The notes: generated by a model not told the origin, from the sequence alone. DNA of 56,419 nucleotides from Acidobacteriota bacterium (GCA_016190945.1 JACPPO010000088.1:1-56419); one strand, 5' to 3'; shown: positions 12,163 through 56,391, counted from the stretch's first letter. Made by a program: numbers and translations.

Positions 12163-12747
12163 ATGAGACTGCGCCGTTCGGTGCTGCTGACTACTGTTGC
12201 GCTGCTGATCGTTATGGTAATGGCGAACTGCTCGAGGAGAACGCCGCCTCCAGCGCCGCCACCGCCCGCACCGCCGCCTCCGGCCGCGACCCCGCCGCCG
12301 CCACCGCCGCCGCCACCGCCGCCACCGCCACCGGCCCCCGCACCGCCGCCAGCGCCGCTGACGGAGGACGAGATCTTCTCGCGGAAAACGCTCGCCGATC
12401 TGAACGCGGAGATGCCGCTCGGGGACGCCTTCTTCGACTTCGACATGTTCGCGATCCGGGATGATGCCCGGGCCACGCTGCAGAAGAACGCGGACTATCT
12501 GAGGCGCTGGGCGTCAACACGCGTGACGATTGAAGGTCACGCGGATTCGCGGGGCACCAACGAGTACAACCTGGGGCTTGGCGACCGCCGCGCCAATGCG
12601 GTCAGAGACTACCTGGCGAGTCTCGGGATCGCCGCCGACCGGATGCTGGCTGTGACCAGGGGTGAGGAAAGCCCGCAGTGCACCGAGGAAAACGAGACCT
12701 GCTGGCAGCGGAACCGGCGCGGGCACTTCGTCTTCACGGCGAAATAG
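12163..12747 (+). CDS. pal: Peptidoglycan-associated lipoprotein (OmpA-C family) with a poly-proline linker
   Basis: Lipobox VMANC, then ~40 residues of almost pure Pro/Ala, then an OmpA-like domain (TIEGHADSRGTNEYNLGLGDRRANAV). Confidence 0.85.
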   Translation: MRLRRSVLLTTVALLIVMVMANCSRRTPPPAPPPPAPPPPAATPPPPPPPPPPPPPPAPAPPPAPLTEDEIFSRKTLADLNAEMPLGDAFFDFDMFAIRDDARATLQKNADYLRRWASTRVTIEGHADSRGTNEYNLGLGDRRANAVRDYLASLGIAADRMLAVTRGEESPQCTEENETCWQRNRRGHFVFTAK

Positions 12748-12763: not shown

Positions 12764-12792
12764 GTAGGGGCGGACCTTCAGGTCCGCCCTAC
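12764..12792. terminator. GC-rich hairpin between convergent pal and pyrF (bidirectional terminator candidate)
   Basis: GTAGGGGCGGACC-TTCA-GGTCCGCCCTAC: a 9-bp perfect stem plus 3 bp after a 1-nt bulge. The pyrF stop (12778-12780) lies in the loop. Confidence 0.55.
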
Positions 12793-13500
12793 CGAAGCCA
12801 GCTCCTCGACAATCGCCTCCGCCGCTGCGCGCGGATCGGGCGCGGCGATGATCGGCCGCCCCACCACAATGTAGCTCGCGCCTGCCCGCAGCGCCTCCGC
12901 CGGCCCCATCGTCCTCGCTTGATCGTTTCGCTCGGTACCCGCTGACGCACTCCGGATTCCCGGCGTTACGATCAAGAACTGGTCGCCGCAGGCGTGTCGA
13001 ATCGCCGCGGTTTCCAGGGGCGAGGCAACGACACCATCCAGGCCGGCGGTCTGCGTCATCTTCGCCAGCGCCACGACCTGGTCGAGCGCGGAACGTTGTA
13101 TCCCCGTGCCACGCAGGCCGGCGTCGTCCATGCTCGTGAGTACGGTAACACCGATCAGGAGAGGTGGCGGACGTCGCAGCCGCTGCGCGGCGTCGCGGCC
13201 GGCTTGCGCGGCGGCCTGCATCATGGGGACGCCGCCAGACGCATGGACGTTCATCATCCATGCGCCCGTTCGCACGGCGGCGTCCACTGCCTGCGACACC
13301 GTGTTCGGAATGTCGTGAAACTTGAGGTCGAGGAACACGCGCGCGCCCAGGGCGCCAAGCTGTCGTACGAGGTCGGGGCCCTCGAGTGTGAAGAGACGGC
13401 TGCCGACCTTGAATCCGCCAGCGACGCCCTCGAGCGCCGAAGCCAAGTCGAGCGCGCGTTCACCGGTTTCGACGTCGAGCGCGACTAGGAGCTTATCCAC
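12778..13500 (-). CDS. pyrF: Orotidine 5'-phosphate decarboxylase
   Basis: VDKLLVALDV...FLDLKFHDIPNTV...VGRPI motifs. Start re-set to GTG 13500. The track ORF extends upstream into pyrD in another frame. Confidence 0.85.
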   Translation of the reverse strand: MDKLLVALDVETGERALDLASALEGVAGGFKVGSRLFTLEGPDLVRQLGALGARVFLDLKFHDIPNTVSQAVDAAVRTGAWMMNVHASGGVPMMQAAAQAGRDAAQRLRRPPPLLIGVTVLTSMDDAGLRGTGIQRSALDQVVALAKMTQTAGLDGVVASPLETAAIRHACGDQFLIVTPGIRSASAGTERNDQARTMGPAEALRAGASYIVVGRPIIAAPDPRAAAEAIVEELASVGRT

Positions 13501-14426
13501 TGCTTTTCGCGTGCGCTCGTGTCGAGCGTGCCCGTCAGGTCGCTGACGCGCGAGACGCCGTGGCGCTCGAGATACTGGCGGATCCCGTCCAGGAGCTTTG
13601 TGCAGATGAACGGGTCGACGAAGTTGGCCGTGCCGACCTGCACGGCGCTGGCGCCCGCGATCAGGAACTCCAGCGCATCGCCGGTCGAGGCGATGCCCCC
13701 CATCCCAATCACCGGAATCTGCACGGCGCGGCGGCACTCGTACACCATGCGTACGGCAATCGGCCGGATCGCGGGCCCGCTCAGTCCGCCGACGATGTTC
13801 GAGAGCCTGGGCCGCCGCGTCTCGACGTCGATGGCCATGGCGAGAAAAGTGTTGACCAGCGAGACGGCGTCGGCGCCAGCCTCCTCCGAGGCGCGGGCAA
13901 ACGAGGCGACATCCGTCACGTTCGGCGTCAATTTTGGAATCACGGGGAGGCGGGTCACCTTCCTGACCGCACTGACCACGTCAAAGGTGCCGTTCAGGCT
14001 GCACCCGAACGTGATGCCGCCTTCCTTGATGTTCGGACACGAAATATTGAGTTCGAGCGCAGCCACGCCGTCCGCGTCCGACAGGATGCGCGCAAGCTCC
14101 ACATATTCGTCGAGCGTGCTGCCACAGATGTTGACGATGACCGTGGCACGGCGCTCGCGCAGCTCCGGCAGTTTTTCCTTGATGAACCGATGAACGCCGA
14201 TGCCCTGGAGTCCGATGGCGTTGAGCATTCCCGCGGGGGTTTCAACGATCCGCTCCGGCGGATGTCCCTGGCGCTCGGCGAGAAACAAGCCTTTGACGGC
14301 AACGCCGCCCAGCAGCGACAGGTCGACGACCTCTCCATATTCGACGCCGTACCCGAAACATCCACTTGCCGCGATAACGGGGTTGGCAAGCTTGAGCGAT
14401 CCGATCTGGACGGAAAGATCCGGCAC
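13485..14426 (-). CDS. pyrD: Dihydroorotate dehydrogenase B (NAD+), catalytic subunit
   Basis: LKLANPVIAASGCFGYG, class 1B features, and it follows pyrK. I prefer GTG 14426 (MPDLSVQIG...). The track start at 14459 is a TTG inside the spacer repeat. Confidence 0.85.
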   Translation of the reverse strand: MPDLSVQIGSLKLANPVIAASGCFGYGVEYGEVVDLSLLGGVAVKGLFLAERQGHPPERIVETPAGMLNAIGLQGIGVHRFIKEKLPELRERRATVIVNICGSTLDEYVELARILSDADGVAALELNISCPNIKEGGITFGCSLNGTFDVVSAVRKVTRLPVIPKLTPNVTDVASFARASEEAGADAVSLVNTFLAMAIDVETRRPRLSNIVGGLSGPAIRPIAVRMVYECRRAVQIPVIGMGGIASTGDALEFLIAGASAVQVGTANFVDPFICTKLLDGIRQYLERHGVSRVSDLTGTLDTSAREKQWISS

Positions 14427-14430
14427 GCTA

Positions 14431-14495
14431 AATCCCAACTCCCAACTCCCAACGACCAAGTCCCAGTTGGGTTCTGGGACTCAGGATTCTGGATT
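14431..14495. repeat. Heptad-word hairpin in the pyrK-pyrD spacer (CCCAACT x3 / GTTGGGT TCTGGGA CTCAGGA TTCTGGA)
   Basis: Period-7 units read directly. The core is an 8-bp perfect stem, 14459-14466 with 14474-14481, around a 7-nt loop. Confidence 0.8.
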
Positions 14496-14503
14496 CGCTC
14501 ATG

Positions 14504-15457
14504 CTAGTCCCAGACAATATCGGCGCCCGCGAAAACCGGCCCGCCGATGCACGACCTGACGTAACGCCAACCGTCGCGGCCCTCCCGCACCGGAATCACG
14601 CAGCTGTAGCAGCCTCCAAGGCCACATCCCATTACGCGCTCTACCGACACCTGGGATGGCCGGCCGTACCTGGCCGCGAGGTGCGCGACGGCTTCGAGCA
14701 TCGGCTCGGGACCGCACGCGTAGATCGTGATGCTGCTTCCGGAGGGTTGACCGCCCCCGCCAAGGTCGGGTCGCTGTGCGCCCCGCCCGGCCAGTGTCGG
14801 CCGGGCGATCCGCTCTGGCGGATCCCCCCTGCGTTCCGCCGAAGCTTCAGACGAAGGCGGAAGGTCTCCGGCTGCCTTCTGGGGGCGTCCGGCGACCCGC
14901 AGTGCGCGCTCGAGGGGCACCGTGACGCGCCCGTGGTCTCCCACGCTGCCGTCTTCTGTCGCGAGCACCATCCGGACGCCTCGAGCCTGAAACCAGTCGA
15001 GATAGAACAGCTCGCGGCCGCTGCGCGCGCCGTAAAAGAGTGTGACCGTGGTGCCGCGACCGCGCAGCGCCTCGGTGAGCGTCGCGAAGGGCGCAAGCCC
15101 GACGCCGCCCGCAACCATCCACGCTTCGGCGGGCGGATCCAGCAGCTCGAACGGACGGCCGAGCGGCCCAAGACACGAGACGACATCGCCTTCCACGGCG
15201 TCAAACAGCATGCTTGTTGTCACGCCCACCCGCTTGCTGAGCAACGTCAGGCCGTCAACGTGCCCGTTGGTGCGCAGAACTTCAAAAACAGAGAAGGGCC
15301 GCCGCAGCAGCGGAGTGAACCCGCGGCCCAGCTTGACCATGACGAACTGGCCAGGGGCGGTGGAGGCGGCAATGTCTGGAGCGGCGAGCGCGATGACGTT
15401 GTAGTCCGGGGAGAGGCGCGTGTTGGCGATAACCCGTGCCTCGACGTCGACGGGCAT
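14504..15457 (-). CDS. pyrK: Dihydroorotate dehydrogenase electron-transfer subunit (FAD/[2Fe-2S]) carrying a ~55-aa in-frame insertion
   Basis: RPFSV FAD motif, GGVGLAP, and a C-terminal CGLGGCYSC...C cluster. Start set at ATG 15457 (MPVDVEARV). The product is 317 aa, against the roughly 260 aa I expect for this family from memory. Confidence 0.85.
   Translation of the reverse strand: MPVDVEARVIANTRLSPDYNVIALAAPDIAASTAPGQFVMVKLGRGFTPLLRRPFSVFEVLRTNGHVDGLTLLSKRVGVTTSMLFDAVEGDVVSCLGPLGRPFELLDPPAEAWMVAGGVGLAPFATLTEALRGRGTTVTLFYGARSGRELFYLDWFQARGVRMVLATEDGSVGDHGRVTVPLERALRVAGRPQKAAGDLPPSSEASAERRGDPPERIARPTLAGRGAQRPDLGGGGQPSGSSITIYACGPEPMLEAVAHLAARYGRPSQVSVERVMGCGLGGCYSCVIPVREGRDGWRYVRSCIGGPVFAGADIVWD
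14749..14880 (+). repeat. Dispersed double-hairpin repeat, copy A (inside pyrK)
   Basis: The 100-nt core 14764-14863 aligns with 41288-41386, mostly identical with one indel. It contains GATCCGC-TCTG-GCGGATC and CCGCC-N15-GGCGG hairpins. Confidence 0.85.
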
Positions 15458-29623: not shown

Positions 29624-29666
29624 CTGTTCGGGTCGTTCGAACCGTTCGGTGCGTGGCTCTTTCGCA

Positions 29667-29697
29667 GGGCGGCCCTCCCAGGCCGCCCTTTCTCTTT
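29667..29697 (+). terminator. Intrinsic terminator after the dksA-like gene
   Basis: GGGCGGCC-CTCCCA-GGCCGCCC followed by TTTCTCTTT. Confidence 0.65.
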
Positions 29698-39290: not shown

Positions 39291-40571
39291 ATGACCATGG
39301 CAATTCACCGCGGCCTCGCTCCTGTCCGGGCGGTCCTTGGCAACGGGGCCGTCGTCATCGCCAAGGAGTCGCCGACAACGCCCGCCGTCACCGTGCATGC
39401 GTCGTTCCGCGCAGGAACCGTGTTCGATCCGGCGGATCAGGCCGGTCTGTCGCACTTCGTCTCGCGGACGATCGATCGCGGCACGGAGACGCGCCCGGCG
39501 GACCGCATCGCCGAGGCATTGGACGGTCGCGGCGTGTCACTCTCCATCAGCGTCAACCGCCACGCGCTGTCGCTGGTGTGCACCTGCCTGGTCGAGGATC
39601 TCGTTCCGATTCTCGACCTGCTGGCCGACATCGTCAGCCGTCCCACGTTTCCGAAGGACGAGGTCGACACGAAACGTGGCGAAATCGTCACGCTGATCCG
39701 CCAGGATGAAGACAACCCGGCGGCGCTCGCCACCGAAGGGTTGCTCACGGAGCTCTACGGTGCGGCGCATCCGTACGGACGCCGGCCGCGAGGATCGGTT
39801 GAGGGCGTCGAGACGATCGGCGGTGCCGCGCTGCAGAGGTTTCATGCCGAGCGCTTCAGCCCGGATTCGCTGTCGCTTGTCATGGTGGGTGATATCGAGC
39901 CGGCTCGCGCGATCGACGCCGCCGGGACCGCGTTCGGTCAATGGGCTGTTGCAACGCCGCCGGCGTTCGAGTTGCCCGAGGTCGCCCCCGCGTCAAGCCG
40001 TCGGGTTCGCGTGATCCCGATGATGAACAAGGCGCAGGCCGACATCGCCTACGGCTTCACCAGTGTGCGGCGTGCCGATCCTGGCTATGACGCGTACTGG
40101 CTGATGAACAACATCCTCGGGCAGTACGCCATTGGTGGCCGGCTGGGCGACAGCATCCGTGAGCGTCAGGGGATGGCCTATTACGTCTTCAGCGCGCTCG
40201 ACGCCAATGTCATTCCGGGCCCATTGACGATCCGCGCGGGGGTGAGCCCCGCCAACGTGGACCGCGCCGTCGCTTCAATTGACGAGGAACTGCGGAAGCT
40301 GGCCGCGGAGGGGCCGACCGATTCGGAGATGACCGAATCGAAGCAATACCTCATCGGCTCGATGCCGCGAACGCTGGAGACCAATCTCGGCATCGCCACG
40401 CTCCTGCAGACGGAAGAGTTCTTCGGTCTTGGCCTTGACTATGACCTGCGCGTGCCCGACCTCCTTCGGGCCGTGACGCGCGAAGACGTCAACGCCGCGG
40501 CCCGGCGGACACTGGTTCCCGCGCATGCGACGGTCGTGATTGCGGGCCCGTACGCGGGCGAGGCGCGATGA
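39291..40571 (+). CDS. M16 family peptidase, non-catalytic subunit (no HxxEH)
   Basis: M16 fold similarity (…VTVHASFRAGTVFDP…). Start re-set to ATG 39291. Confidence 0.8.
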   Translation: MTMAIHRGLAPVRAVLGNGAVVIAKESPTTPAVTVHASFRAGTVFDPADQAGLSHFVSRTIDRGTETRPADRIAEALDGRGVSLSISVNRHALSLVCTCLVEDLVPILDLLADIVSRPTFPKDEVDTKRGEIVTLIRQDEDNPAALATEGLLTELYGAAHPYGRRPRGSVEGVETIGGAALQRFHAERFSPDSLSLVMVGDIEPARAIDAAGTAFGQWAVATPPAFELPEVAPASSRRVRVIPMMNKAQADIAYGFTSVRRADPGYDAYWLMNNILGQYAIGGRLGDSIRERQGMAYYVFSALDANVIPGPLTIRAGVSPANVDRAVASIDEELRKLAAEGPTDSEMTESKQYLIGSMPRTLETNLGIATLLQTEEFFGLGLDYDLRVPDLLRAVTREDVNAAARRTLVPAHATVVIAGPYAGEAR

Positions 40572-41263
40572 GGCCAGCGCCTGTCAAGGCGGTGTTCTTC
40601 GACGTCGATTTCACGCTGATTTATCCTGGGCCGACGTTCCAGGGCGCGGGCTACCAACGTTTCTGCGTCCGCTACGGCATCGACGTCGATCCGTCGCGAT
40701 TTTCCGAGGCGGTCCTGTCCGCGGCGGCGATTCTGGGCGAGCAGCACGACCACACCTACGACCCCGACATCTTTGTCCGGTACACGCGACGGATCATCGA
40801 GGGAATGGGCGGCAGCGGCGAGCAGCTCGGTCCATGCGCGAAGGAAATCTACACCGAATGGGCCGCCTGCCAGCATTTCTTTCTGTATGACGATGTGACA
40901 CCGGCGCTGCGGGAGCTGGCGGCCCGGGGCGTTCAGGTGGGGCTCATTTCGAACTCCCATCGCTGCCTGGCGTCATTTCAGCAGCATTTCGAGCTTCACG
41001 GGCTGATTGCTGTCGCGCTTTCTTCATCTGAGCACGGATACCTGAAGCCGCACCCCAGCATCTTCGAATCGGCGCTGAAGCTGCTCGGCGTCGCCGCTGC
41101 GGAGGCGGTGATGGTTGGCGACAGCCTGTCGCACGACATCGAAGGCGCGCGGCGCGTGGGGATGCGCGGCATCCTGGTCCGGCGCTCACCTGACGCTGCT
41201 CAGGCAGGGGTACCCGGCGTACCGGTGATCCACGACCTGTCGGAACTGCCGGCGCTGCTCTGA
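40568..41263 (+). CDS. HAD superfamily hydrolase
   Basis: Motif I FFDVDFT, motif III/IV ...MVGDSLSHDIEGA. ATGA overlap with the upstream gene. Confidence 0.8.
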   Translation: MRPAPVKAVFFDVDFTLIYPGPTFQGAGYQRFCVRYGIDVDPSRFSEAVLSAAAILGEQHDHTYDPDIFVRYTRRIIEGMGGSGEQLGPCAKEIYTEWAACQHFFLYDDVTPALRELAARGVQVGLISNSHRCLASFQQHFELHGLIAVALSSSEHGYLKPHPSIFESALKLLGVAAAEAVMVGDSLSHDIEGARRVGMRGILVRRSPDAAQAGVPGVPVIHDLSELPALL

Positions 41264-41272
41264 GGTCCGGCT

Positions 41273-41398
41273 GATCGCCTCCGCCCAGGTCGGGTCGCTG
41301 TGCGACCCGTCCAACCGGTGCCGGCCGGGCGATCCGCTCTGGCGGATCGCCCCTGGGTCCGCCGAAGCTTCACGCGAAGGCGGAAGCCGGACCCTGCG
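41273..41398 (+). repeat. Dispersed double-hairpin repeat, copy B (intergenic, between convergent HAD and HIT genes)
   Basis: The core 41288-41386 aligns with 14764-14863. It includes the perfect hairpin GGCGATCCGC-TCTG-GCGGATCGCC. Confidence 0.85.
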
Positions 41399-56315: not shown

Positions 56316-56391
56316 TGGTGGACCTGACCGGGATCGAACCGGTGACCTCCTGAATGCCATTCAGGCGCGCTCCCAACTGCGCTACAGGCCC
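56316..56391 (-). tRNA. tRNA-Ala (anticodon GGC), CCA encoded
   Basis: Hand-folded cloverleaf: acceptor GGGCCTG/CAGGTCC with G3:U70, D stem GCGC, anticodon stem CCTGA/TCAGG with loop AUGGCAU, T arm ACCGG-TTCGATC-CCGGT. 76 nt. Confidence 0.9.

Follow-up and report, generated by a model that had tools for sequence, protein, structure and literature searches.

A nested REP-type palindromic element within the reading frame of pyrK in an Acidobacteriota bacterium

The element in pyrK and its relatives in the window

The pyrK gene in a 56,419-nucleotide stretch from an Acidobacteriota bacterium (GCA_016190945.1, JACPPO010000088.1:1-56419; the whole stretch is called the window below) contains a hairpin-rich segment that recurs in intergenic DNA. 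The locus raises the question of what this segment is, how it came to occupy the coding sequence of an essential enzyme, and whether it matters to the protein or to the transcript. The gene and its neighbours are arranged as follows.

14504–15457, minus strand: pyrK (dihydroorotate dehydrogenase B electron-transfer subunit), 317 amino acids from MPVDV (ORF list)
13485–14459, minus strand: pyrD, directly downstream of pyrK
12778–13737, minus strand: pyrF, downstream, same strand as pyrK

The minus-strand ORF extends mechanically to 15604, and the likely start of pyrK is the MPVDV at 15457. A total of 8000 PyrK homologues were found, with PF10418 and PF00175, and phmmer matched the protein to PyrK and NfnI-S (NfnI small subunit) chains in the PDB. 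The AlphaFold model resembled 5ksw_B and 1ep1_B with TM scores of 0.77–0.78 (Foldseek). FNR-like FAD and NAD domains, a C-terminal 2Fe-2S domain with four cysteines and the adjoining pyrD identify the protein as PyrK. In orthologue alignments, the Fe-S cysteines (C278, C283, C286 and C303) and the YACGP motif were invariant columns, which bears out an earlier, sequence-only reading that placed an insertion just before YACGP and described the Fe-S cysteines as intact. The closest PyrK homologues carry names from Vicinamibacterales, Acidobacteriota, and an exact look-up of the window PyrD matched no record.

Codon-level comparison with orthologues delimited a 137-nt composite element within the gene. 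Its parts, with the bases beside it, are listed below.

14739–14875, minus strand: composite REP-derived element in pyrK, 137 nt
14836–14860, minus strand: hairpin A, 25 nt (exact pattern matches)
14767–14828, no strand assigned: three overlapping inner hairpins of the long form (hairpin scan, folds, and alignment with other long-form copies)
14767–14785, no strand assigned: hairpin 1, 7 of 8 pairs
14784–14807, no strand assigned: middle hairpin, 9-bp stem
14803–14828, no strand assigned: hairpin 2, 10 of 11 pairs
14750–14766, minus strand: 3′ half of segment B (match to canonical B, CCTTGGCGGAGGCGGT)
14876–14887, minus strand: twelve extra bases beside the element, CGCCCCCAGAAG, coding for RPQK

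In sense-strand order, the element consisted of the head GCAG, the arm CCGGAGACC, TT, hairpin A, an interrupted B, CA and the arm ACCCTCCGG, and its translation was AAGDLPPSSEASAERRGDPPERIARPTLAGRGAQRPDLGGGGQPSG. The outer arms occupied 14739–14747 and 14863–14871, and the head was a degenerate GCAG (complement at 14872–14875). Hairpin A, which read CCGCCGAAGCTTCAGACGAAGGCGG on the plus strand and CCGCCTTCGTCTGAAGCTTCGGCGG on the sense strand, coded for PPSSEASAE and was kept in all four of the four pyrK inserts possessing one; the 3′ half of segment B (sense CCTTGGCGGGGGCGGT) coded for LGGGG. What had been described as a double hairpin was thus an outer stem with four or five internal hairpins. 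In the pyrK element, a GTAG-headed REP palindrome forms the base of a nested composite and holds extra hairpin modules in its apical loop. The pyrK frame was open through the repeat copy, and the peptide quoted in the sequence-only reading was a correct translation of it. The RPQK-coding bases separate the element from the VAG codons, which are native or older, and the closest orthologues (P0002, P0003 and P0009) have this piece as PQK; these 12 nt may be left over from an earlier layer of insertion.

Two further family members were present in the window, making three in 56 kb.

41264–41397, minus strand: intergenic long-form copy with perfect hairpins and the same interior as the pyrK copy (hairpin 1, 41291–41309; hairpin 2, 41327–41352; hairpin A, 41359–41383)
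12764–12793, no strand assigned: plain REP of the same superfamily, GTAGGGGCGGACC TTCA GGTCCGCCCTAC

In the intergenic copy, GGTCCGGC (41264–41271) pairs with GCCGGACC (41386–41393) to form the outer stem, and the head is a GCAG on the minus strand (41394–41397). On one side this copy directly adjoins the stop codon of the HAD-type hydrolase ORF at 40568–41263 (plus strand); on the other, the end of a convergent HIT-family ORF (from 41411, minus strand) is 14 nt away. The plain REP, headed by GTAG, is located between a convergent pal/ompA-like ORF and pyrF, and pyrF ends in its loop, which contributes the stop codon on the minus strand. Both extragenic copies in the window therefore lie between convergent genes.

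The pyrK and intergenic copies matched in the same orientation (14745–14863 and 41269–41386) with 88% identity and one indel. A repeat search gave 87% over the first 90 nt (14745–14834 and 41269–41358), and in a MAFFT alignment the match ran on past the indel to the end of a shared 28-mer at 14863/41386. Within the interior, 100 of 113 aligned bases were identical, with one gap column, even though the two copies are 26.5 kb apart and have different outer stems. The core 23-mer and the 28-mer had no further occurrences in the window, for which 100 dinucleotide-preserving shuffles gave a chance expectation of 0.00. The earlier claim of two matching same-orientation copies with a single indel was thus sound and held under alignment statistics, but the core start it gave, 14764, was not, since the similarity begins at 14745, about 20 nt earlier.

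A palindrome family that enters genes in frame

A scan for hairpin A (21 fixed bases, one genome per species) yielded at least 119 stretches. At least 46 acidobacterial copies shared a canonical form consisting of GTAG, a 7–10-nt stem, CTT, A, B, (C/T)AG and the complementary stem, in which hairpin B was ACCGCCGTAGCCTTGGCGGAGGCGGT. In 39 canonical copies, GTAG or GTGG was found 0–2 nt ahead of the outer stem. When 39 canonical copies were aligned for covariation analysis, changes on both sides were seen at 6 of the 8 outer-stem pairs. Paired cells made up 93.9% of the outer stem, compared with 82% after shuffling and 22–49% with a slid partner, and the covariation score was 0.316, compared with 0.110 and at most 0.07, respectively. 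The outer stem thus shows the compensatory changes expected of a GTAG-type REP. The B stem covaried as well, from G-C to A-U in nine copies.

Outer stems were largely genome-specific, with GGGCGCGGC occurring four times in Luteitalea Dino_bin50 and GTGCCGGGC four times in MEKU01. Dispersed copies with genome-specific stems are characteristic of GTAG-type REPs and REPINs. Matches to the family numbered 177 in ~0.97 Mb (nhmmer); weak nhmmer matches within pyrD (E 0.003–0.9) were judged compositional. Most copies lay outside genes, and the two extragenic window copies had convergent neighbours, in keeping with the usual placement of GTAG-type REPs behind convergent or co-directional genes.

Plain REPs in the same loci had the apex CT-[TT/TC]-AG (CTTTAG in 14, CTTCAG in 11), and composites had CT-T[51 nt]C/T-AG. 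These apex sequences place the A+B module, which is 51 nt or 17 codons long, exactly in the 2-nt apical loop. The stem of the plain REP in the window (GGCGGACC) itself bears the A+B module in three other loci (L016, L088 and L097). The long form, with hairpins nested in B, was rarer; it was found in the window, in L001 and in six soil-metagenome contigs, and the long-form composites here measured 130–137 nt. The pattern of hairpin 2 (GGCGATCCGC-N4-GCGGATC-N-CC) was rejected as a metagenome probe, being a common word in coding DNA and terminators, and only 6 of 120 hairpin-2 loci had related long-form elements (L169, L189, L196, L201, L207 and L224).

Rfam contained no family for the element, either at gathering thresholds (window and 18 loci) or in E-value mode (both copies); the matches obtained were tRNAs, one group I intron and a chance CRISPR-DR9 at E 0.69. 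Assignment to the MITEs was rejected, as the termini differ by copy and genome and the interior is conserved. The only sign of a target-site duplication was one ambiguous T at the apex. A crude HUH/WQxR regular expression detected no RAYT or other transposase in the six-frame window and ~1.6 Mb of related loci, which are genome fragments.

Among ~70 distinct A+B copies in the matches listed, ~7–9 were intragenic, so that about one in ten lies in frame. Candidates were required to have at least 60 stop-free codons on both sides; this gave 15, several of which were one copy counted on both strands. Seven were located in clearly real genes.

L063: in-frame copy in the GATase domain of HisH (hisH); the Pfam alignment spans the insert
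L091: in-frame copy in the SMC hinge (SMC_hinge, smc); the Pfam alignment spans the insert
L082: in-frame copy in a Ser/Thr kinase (Pkinase) domain; the Pfam alignment spans the insert
L052: in-frame copy in Ala_racemase_N (alr); the Pfam alignment spans the insert
L011: in-frame copy in an AMP-binding enzyme gene; the Pfam alignment spans the insert
L036: in-frame copy in a DinB-like polymerase gene of a Doudnabacteria MAG, between domains
L014: in-frame copy in an S9 peptidase gene, between domains

The outer stem of the pyrK element recurred in the kinase-gene copy (L082). Intragenic copies occurred in both orientations relative to the host gene, and the element was read in at least two ways, as LPPSREASADRRSLGGGGQ or, from the other strand, as DRLRQGYGGPPKLHAKAE. 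Reading in two ways indicates that no single peptide or orientation is required. With pyrK and these seven genes, in-frame copies are present in unrelated genes whose domains are undisrupted, as for the Rickettsia palindromic elements (RPEs) to which the pyrK repeat had been likened in its behaviour. Occupying genes in frame is a habit of the whole family, beyond pyrK.

The pyrK linker in DNA, RNA and protein

The linker between ‘PLEREL’ and ‘IYACGP’ was compared codon by codon in nine pyrK genes. L245 and L246 had a short linker without insert (QVAGGRDVM and RVAGGNDIT). In L003 and L248, a 27-nt unit was present, GTAG-CCGGAGGCC-TT(C/A)A-GGCCTCCGG, read as VAGGLQASG or VAGGLKASG. With its GTAG head and perfect 9-bp palindrome, this unit fits the definition of a GTAG-type REP. 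L002 had an outer stem of the L003/L248 type with the 25-nt hairpin A (CCGCCTTCGCGTGAAGCTTCGGCGG) in its loop, and the pyrK genes of the window and L001 had the long form, with an outer stem, hairpin A and three further hairpins. All of the pyrK inserts compared were in frame.

Across 120 orthologues, 66 had a linker of at most 10 residues (mostly 8–10) and seven had one of more than 35; the REP-coded motif (A/G)G-x-(L/R/P)(Q/K/E)-x-S was found in 25 and the hairpin-A peptide in six. The sequence-only reading had put the addition at about 55 residues and implied a single recent insertion special to this genome. The pyrK segment instead accounts for ~49 residues, compared with the 8–10-residue linker of most orthologues, and orthologues of the same order carry graded homologous inserts.

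The linker states were patchy on a rough NJ tree of PyrK. This distribution fits recurrent insertion at a hot spot, and it also fits a single old insertion that lost parts by repeated deletion. The offset of the 27-nt unit varied, following QRARS in P0071 and IAGGPPQK in P0002. The seemingly empty L246 allele reads GTAGCCGG-GGGG, which could be a footprint. In addition, the identity of the window pyrK insert was 88% with the intergenic copy of the window and only 76% with the L001 pyrK insert, and the L001 insert was, if anything, closer to the window intergenic copy (79%). These identities indicate that the long interior was not vertically inherited at the pyrK site and goes with the resident genome, not with the gene tree; it was either acquired separately in the two lineages or is homogenised against other copies within each genome. 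Compensatory changes have preserved both hairpins in L001, from GGGTCGC/GCGACCC to GCGTCGC/GCGACGC in hairpin 1 and, in hairpin 2, from C-G to T-A.

The graded series at one site (no insert, 27 nt, REP with A, long form) resembles the steps expected if the nesting arose by local hairpin extension, that is, by template switching or fold-back synthesis growing the element in place, and the apparently uninserted L246 allele already carries GTAGCCGG. Hairpins A and B, however, occur with the same sequence at hundreds of unlinked places and genomes, and the interior in the window is shared with the copy 26.5 kb away despite the other outer stem. Stepwise growth in place is thus very unlikely to account for the nesting.

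The folding of the two long-form copies bears on a role in RNA. The pyrK copy had folding energies of -61/-68 kcal/mol on the two strands, compared with -77/-76 kcal/mol for the intergenic copy, and its z-scores against shuffles were -2.2 and -2.8, compared with -5.0 and -4.0. Mismatches in the pyrK copy affected hairpin 1, hairpin 2 and the outer stem. The mismatches and poorer fold are as expected of an older copy decaying under protein-level constraints. If the hairpins instead acted on RNA in the pyrK-pyrD-pyrF operon, whether to direct processing, to stabilise the transcript, to pause translation or to attenuate, they would be kept for that reason. Both strands of the pyrK segment do fold better than shuffles, a plain REP lies at the 3′ end of the operon (12764–12793), and REPs elsewhere stabilise or terminate transcripts (PMC3733652). 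Against this, the copy within the operon is the one that folds worse and carries the mismatches, more than half of the orthologous operons have no insert, intragenic family copies occur in both orientations, and no Rfam family matches. We therefore consider retention for an RNA function improbable; the RNA-level role raised in the sequence-only reading gained nothing from the orientation of the intragenic copies or from the fold of the pyrK copy.

At the protein level, AlphaFold (63 homologues) predicted the FAD- and NAD-binding domains with confidence. Between the helix at 179–190 and the strand at 243–249, pLDDT fell below 50 over approximately residues 198–238. Solved homologues aligned to residues 8–187 and 244–317, with a 6-residue linker at this place (phmmer). 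The insert peptide was rich in Gly, Pro, Arg and Ala. On the simplest reading of the model, the pyrK insert would be a tolerated, disordered surface loop, a possibility that the sequence-only reading had raised. Its predicted disorder, together with the variability among orthologues, suggests that the loop is neutral for the enzyme and has no catalytic role.

The segment might alternatively be a lineage-specific functional loop of PyrK, for docking or regulation, from which the intergenic copy was derived. Many orthologues in the order are extended at this position, and the motifs GGLQASG and PPSREASA are common to several of them. The same DNA modules, however, are found in unrelated genes and intergenic DNA of many genomes, in other frames and orientations elsewhere (LPPSREASADRRSLGGGGQ versus DRLRQGYGGPPKLHAKAE), and it is the base pairing that is conserved, not the peptide. 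AlphaFold gives the loop no structure, and it is absent from solved PyrK structures and from the 66 orthologues with short linkers. The dispersed copies largely refute a functional loop, which we regard as extremely improbable.

Proposed origin and relation to known repeats

Taken with the copies elsewhere, the pyrK segment is very probably a dispersed, selfish palindromic element of REP type that was enlarged by nested modules and is translated as a disordered loop of ~49 residues. The basic unit is a GTAG-headed hairpin of ~26–27 nt whose apical loop measures 2 nt. Vicinamibacterales copies often bear the 51-nt A+B module at this apex, and in the window lineage B itself bears three more hairpins. 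The PyrK NAD-binding domain has a variable linker joining its last helix to its last strand, and a basic unit probably inserted there. Three things would have allowed it to persist: a length divisible by three, the lack of an in-frame stop and the tolerance of the site for loops. Nested modules would later have enlarged it, probably through exchange with copies in the same genome, either by gene conversion or by renewed insertion at the apex. We infer that mobilisation was by a RAYT-like HUH tyrosine transposase. The end product would be a translated, disordered surface loop of ~49 residues, rich in Gly, Pro, Arg and Ala.

Di Nocera, De Gregorio and Rocco (2013) sorted REPs into the GTAG and CGTC superfamilies (PMC3733652). 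They described REPs within known genes of Opitutus terrae, Thauera, Rickettsia conorii and others, with clusters coding for 43–82 residues, and equated RPE-4 and RPE-6 of R. conorii with such REPs (PMC3733652). Bradyrhizobium REPs were reported to have large self-complementary loops of up to 27 bp with GCGG/CCGC termini; loop sequences were common to several species, and movement by a RAYT-type transposase was proposed for GTAG REPs, as also in the REPIN literature (PMC3733652). As intragenic GTAG REPs were described in 2013, the pyrK element joins a known phenomenon, and the novelty implied by the sequence-only reading was overstated, since intragenic GTAG/CGTC REPs of free-living bacteria were already included in that survey. 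We found no literature on such repeats in Vicinamibacteria. Full-text searches with 12- and 16-mers of hairpins A and B gave no match, and 10-mers matched only primers and 16S.

The family resembles GTAG REPs in its GTAG (or GYRG) head, 7–10-bp GC-rich stem and minimal loop, in its genome-specific stems and its location mostly after convergent or co-directional genes, and in having some copies in frame in known genes; some GTAG REP families likewise have large self-complementary loops. It differs in the 51-nt two-hairpin module set in a 2-nt apex and in the three-hairpin layer within B. Its host, in Acidobacteriota/Vicinamibacterales, is outside the described phyla, and the window composites are headed by GCAG. 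The element stands out for an unusually clear nesting and for the graded series of states at a single site.

In-frame insertions of MITEs and RPEs are known and are documented best in Rickettsia, according to a 2024 review (PMC10969869). As far as the RPEs (Ogata et al. 2000) are summarised in PMC10969869 and PMC3733652, they share with the present family a palindromic repeat of ~100–150 nt, in-frame insertion into unrelated housekeeping genes and a peptide compatible with the fold. RPE-1, however, conserves the peptide it codes for. The present family conserves its stems and is translated in two or more frames and in either orientation. The host here is a free-living, high-GC soil bacterium rather than a reduced intracellular genome. 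The likeness to RPEs is one of behaviour only, and the two are set apart by host and by GTAG-REP anatomy.

Other systems combine palindromic units in different ways. BIMEs, the REP clusters of enterobacteria, are mosaics of several palindromic units, and for elements of the IS1397/ISKpn1 type the apical loop of a REP hairpin is the specific insertion target. The modules here differ from the latter in being tiny non-coding hairpins, not insertion sequences. They also differ from BIMEs in placing hairpin within hairpin rather than alternating REPs with linkers.

The pyrK element extends the concept of selfish DNA inside protein genes to the abundant free-living soil Acidobacteriota. At one site of an essential enzyme, pyrK genes of Vicinamibacterales range from no insert to a 137-nt three-layer palindrome, and they constitute a natural experiment on how proteins tolerate and accumulate repeat-encoded loops and on how REP-type elements grow. 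Such repeats have a practical side as well: in metagenomic protein catalogues they add to the variation in gene length, give rise to low-complexity ‘domains’ that are spurious and, through common peptides such as LPPSREASADRRSLGGGGQ and RLRQGYGGPPKLHAKAE, tie unrelated proteins together.

Hairpin A also occurred beyond the Acidobacteriota; repeat families of at least five phyla, differing in architecture, have its 25 nt with hardly any change. Among the matches listed for its 21 fixed bases, there were at least 59 loci in Acidobacteriota, at least 28 in Bacteroidota and Ignavibacteria, at least 13 in Pseudomonadota, at least 11 in Patescibacteria and at least 7 in Verrucomicrobiota; by our own estimate, assuming uniform composition, less than one match was expected by chance. 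In the same matches, hairpin A was nested in an outer stem in 69% of acidobacterial cases, compared with 10% in the control, perhaps in 3 of 7 in Verrucomicrobiota, and in 0 of 28 in Bacteroidota. The rule that hairpin A always lies within an outer stem thus fails for Bacteroidota, Patescibacteria and Pseudomonadota. Hairpin A may recur as a module that moves on its own, as a sequence spread by horizontal transfer or as the target of a common protein. Tentatively, and with rather low confidence, we suggest that hairpin A, alone or with B, is an independent mobile or exchangeable module that enters the 2-nt REP apex and spreads between phyla. If this is true, the ‘complex loops’ of REPs would be a second selfish layer on REPs, enlarging proteins by steps of 17 codons. 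In Bacteroidota, hairpin A was part of a ~110-nt repeat or was terminator-like, following tRNA genes.

Hairpin A outside the host lineage

The 25-nt hairpin A of the pyrK element was found to recur in at least five phyla, with 21 of its bases fixed (loci L006-L124 of the hairpin A scan). Example loci are L009, L013, L015, L027, L032, L076, L080, L115 and L120; L008, L026, L051 and L077; and L031 and L036. In Bacteroidales, hairpin A belongs to a repeat of ~110 nt that contains several hairpins and has TTTAAT…T(T/A)TAAT at its flanks. Some Bacteroidota carry hairpin A immediately 3' of tRNA genes, with a T-run after it. Patescibacteria carry it in single copies within AT-rich DNA. Hairpin A matched no family in Rfam, and a literature search returned no match.

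The two-hairpin module (A+B) was also detected within a coding sequence of a Candidatus Doudnabacteria MAG, whose GC content is ~46% according to its record name. Here, a DinB-like polymerase gene (L036 3232-4875) carries the A+B element in frame, at a position that separates its IMS and IMS_C domains. The same 8-kb locus contains a group I intron (L036 224-516; Rfam, 67.7 bits).

REP and element-like sequence around the pyr genes

A plain GTAG REP lies between pyrF and the convergent pal/ompA-like ORF:

12764-12793, GTAGGGGCGGACC TTCA GGTCCGCCCTAC

On the minus strand, the final codons of pyrF and its TGA stop consist of REP sequence (…TCG GTA GGG CGG ACC TGA). The convergent ORF, which encodes a Pal/OmpA-like lipoprotein (12163-12747, plus strand), contains overlapping CCG/CCA-rich direct repeats at 12242-12367, the product of which is a proline-rich linker, PPPAPPPPAPPPPAATPPPPPPPPPPPPPPAPAPPPAP.

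Using nhmmer, weak matches of the element profile (E 0.003-0.9) were obtained inside pyrD, at the same place in three genomes:

window 14246-14279
relative L005 10987-11079
relative L002 11082-11180

These matches are probably compositional. In relatives, transposase genes of the ISL3 family and DDE type lie no more than a few kb from the pyr genes (L002 1824-3095; L005 14747-16063).

Other hairpins and a tRNA gene in the window

Two GC-rich perfect hairpins, both unrelated to the REP family, were identified in the window, together with a tRNA gene close to the contig end:

23095-23120, hairpin with an 11 bp stem
29666-29689, hairpin with a 9 bp stem, followed by a T-rich run
56319-56391, minus strand, tRNA gene (Rfam, 64 bits)

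The hairpin at 29666-29689 looks like an ordinary intrinsic terminator.
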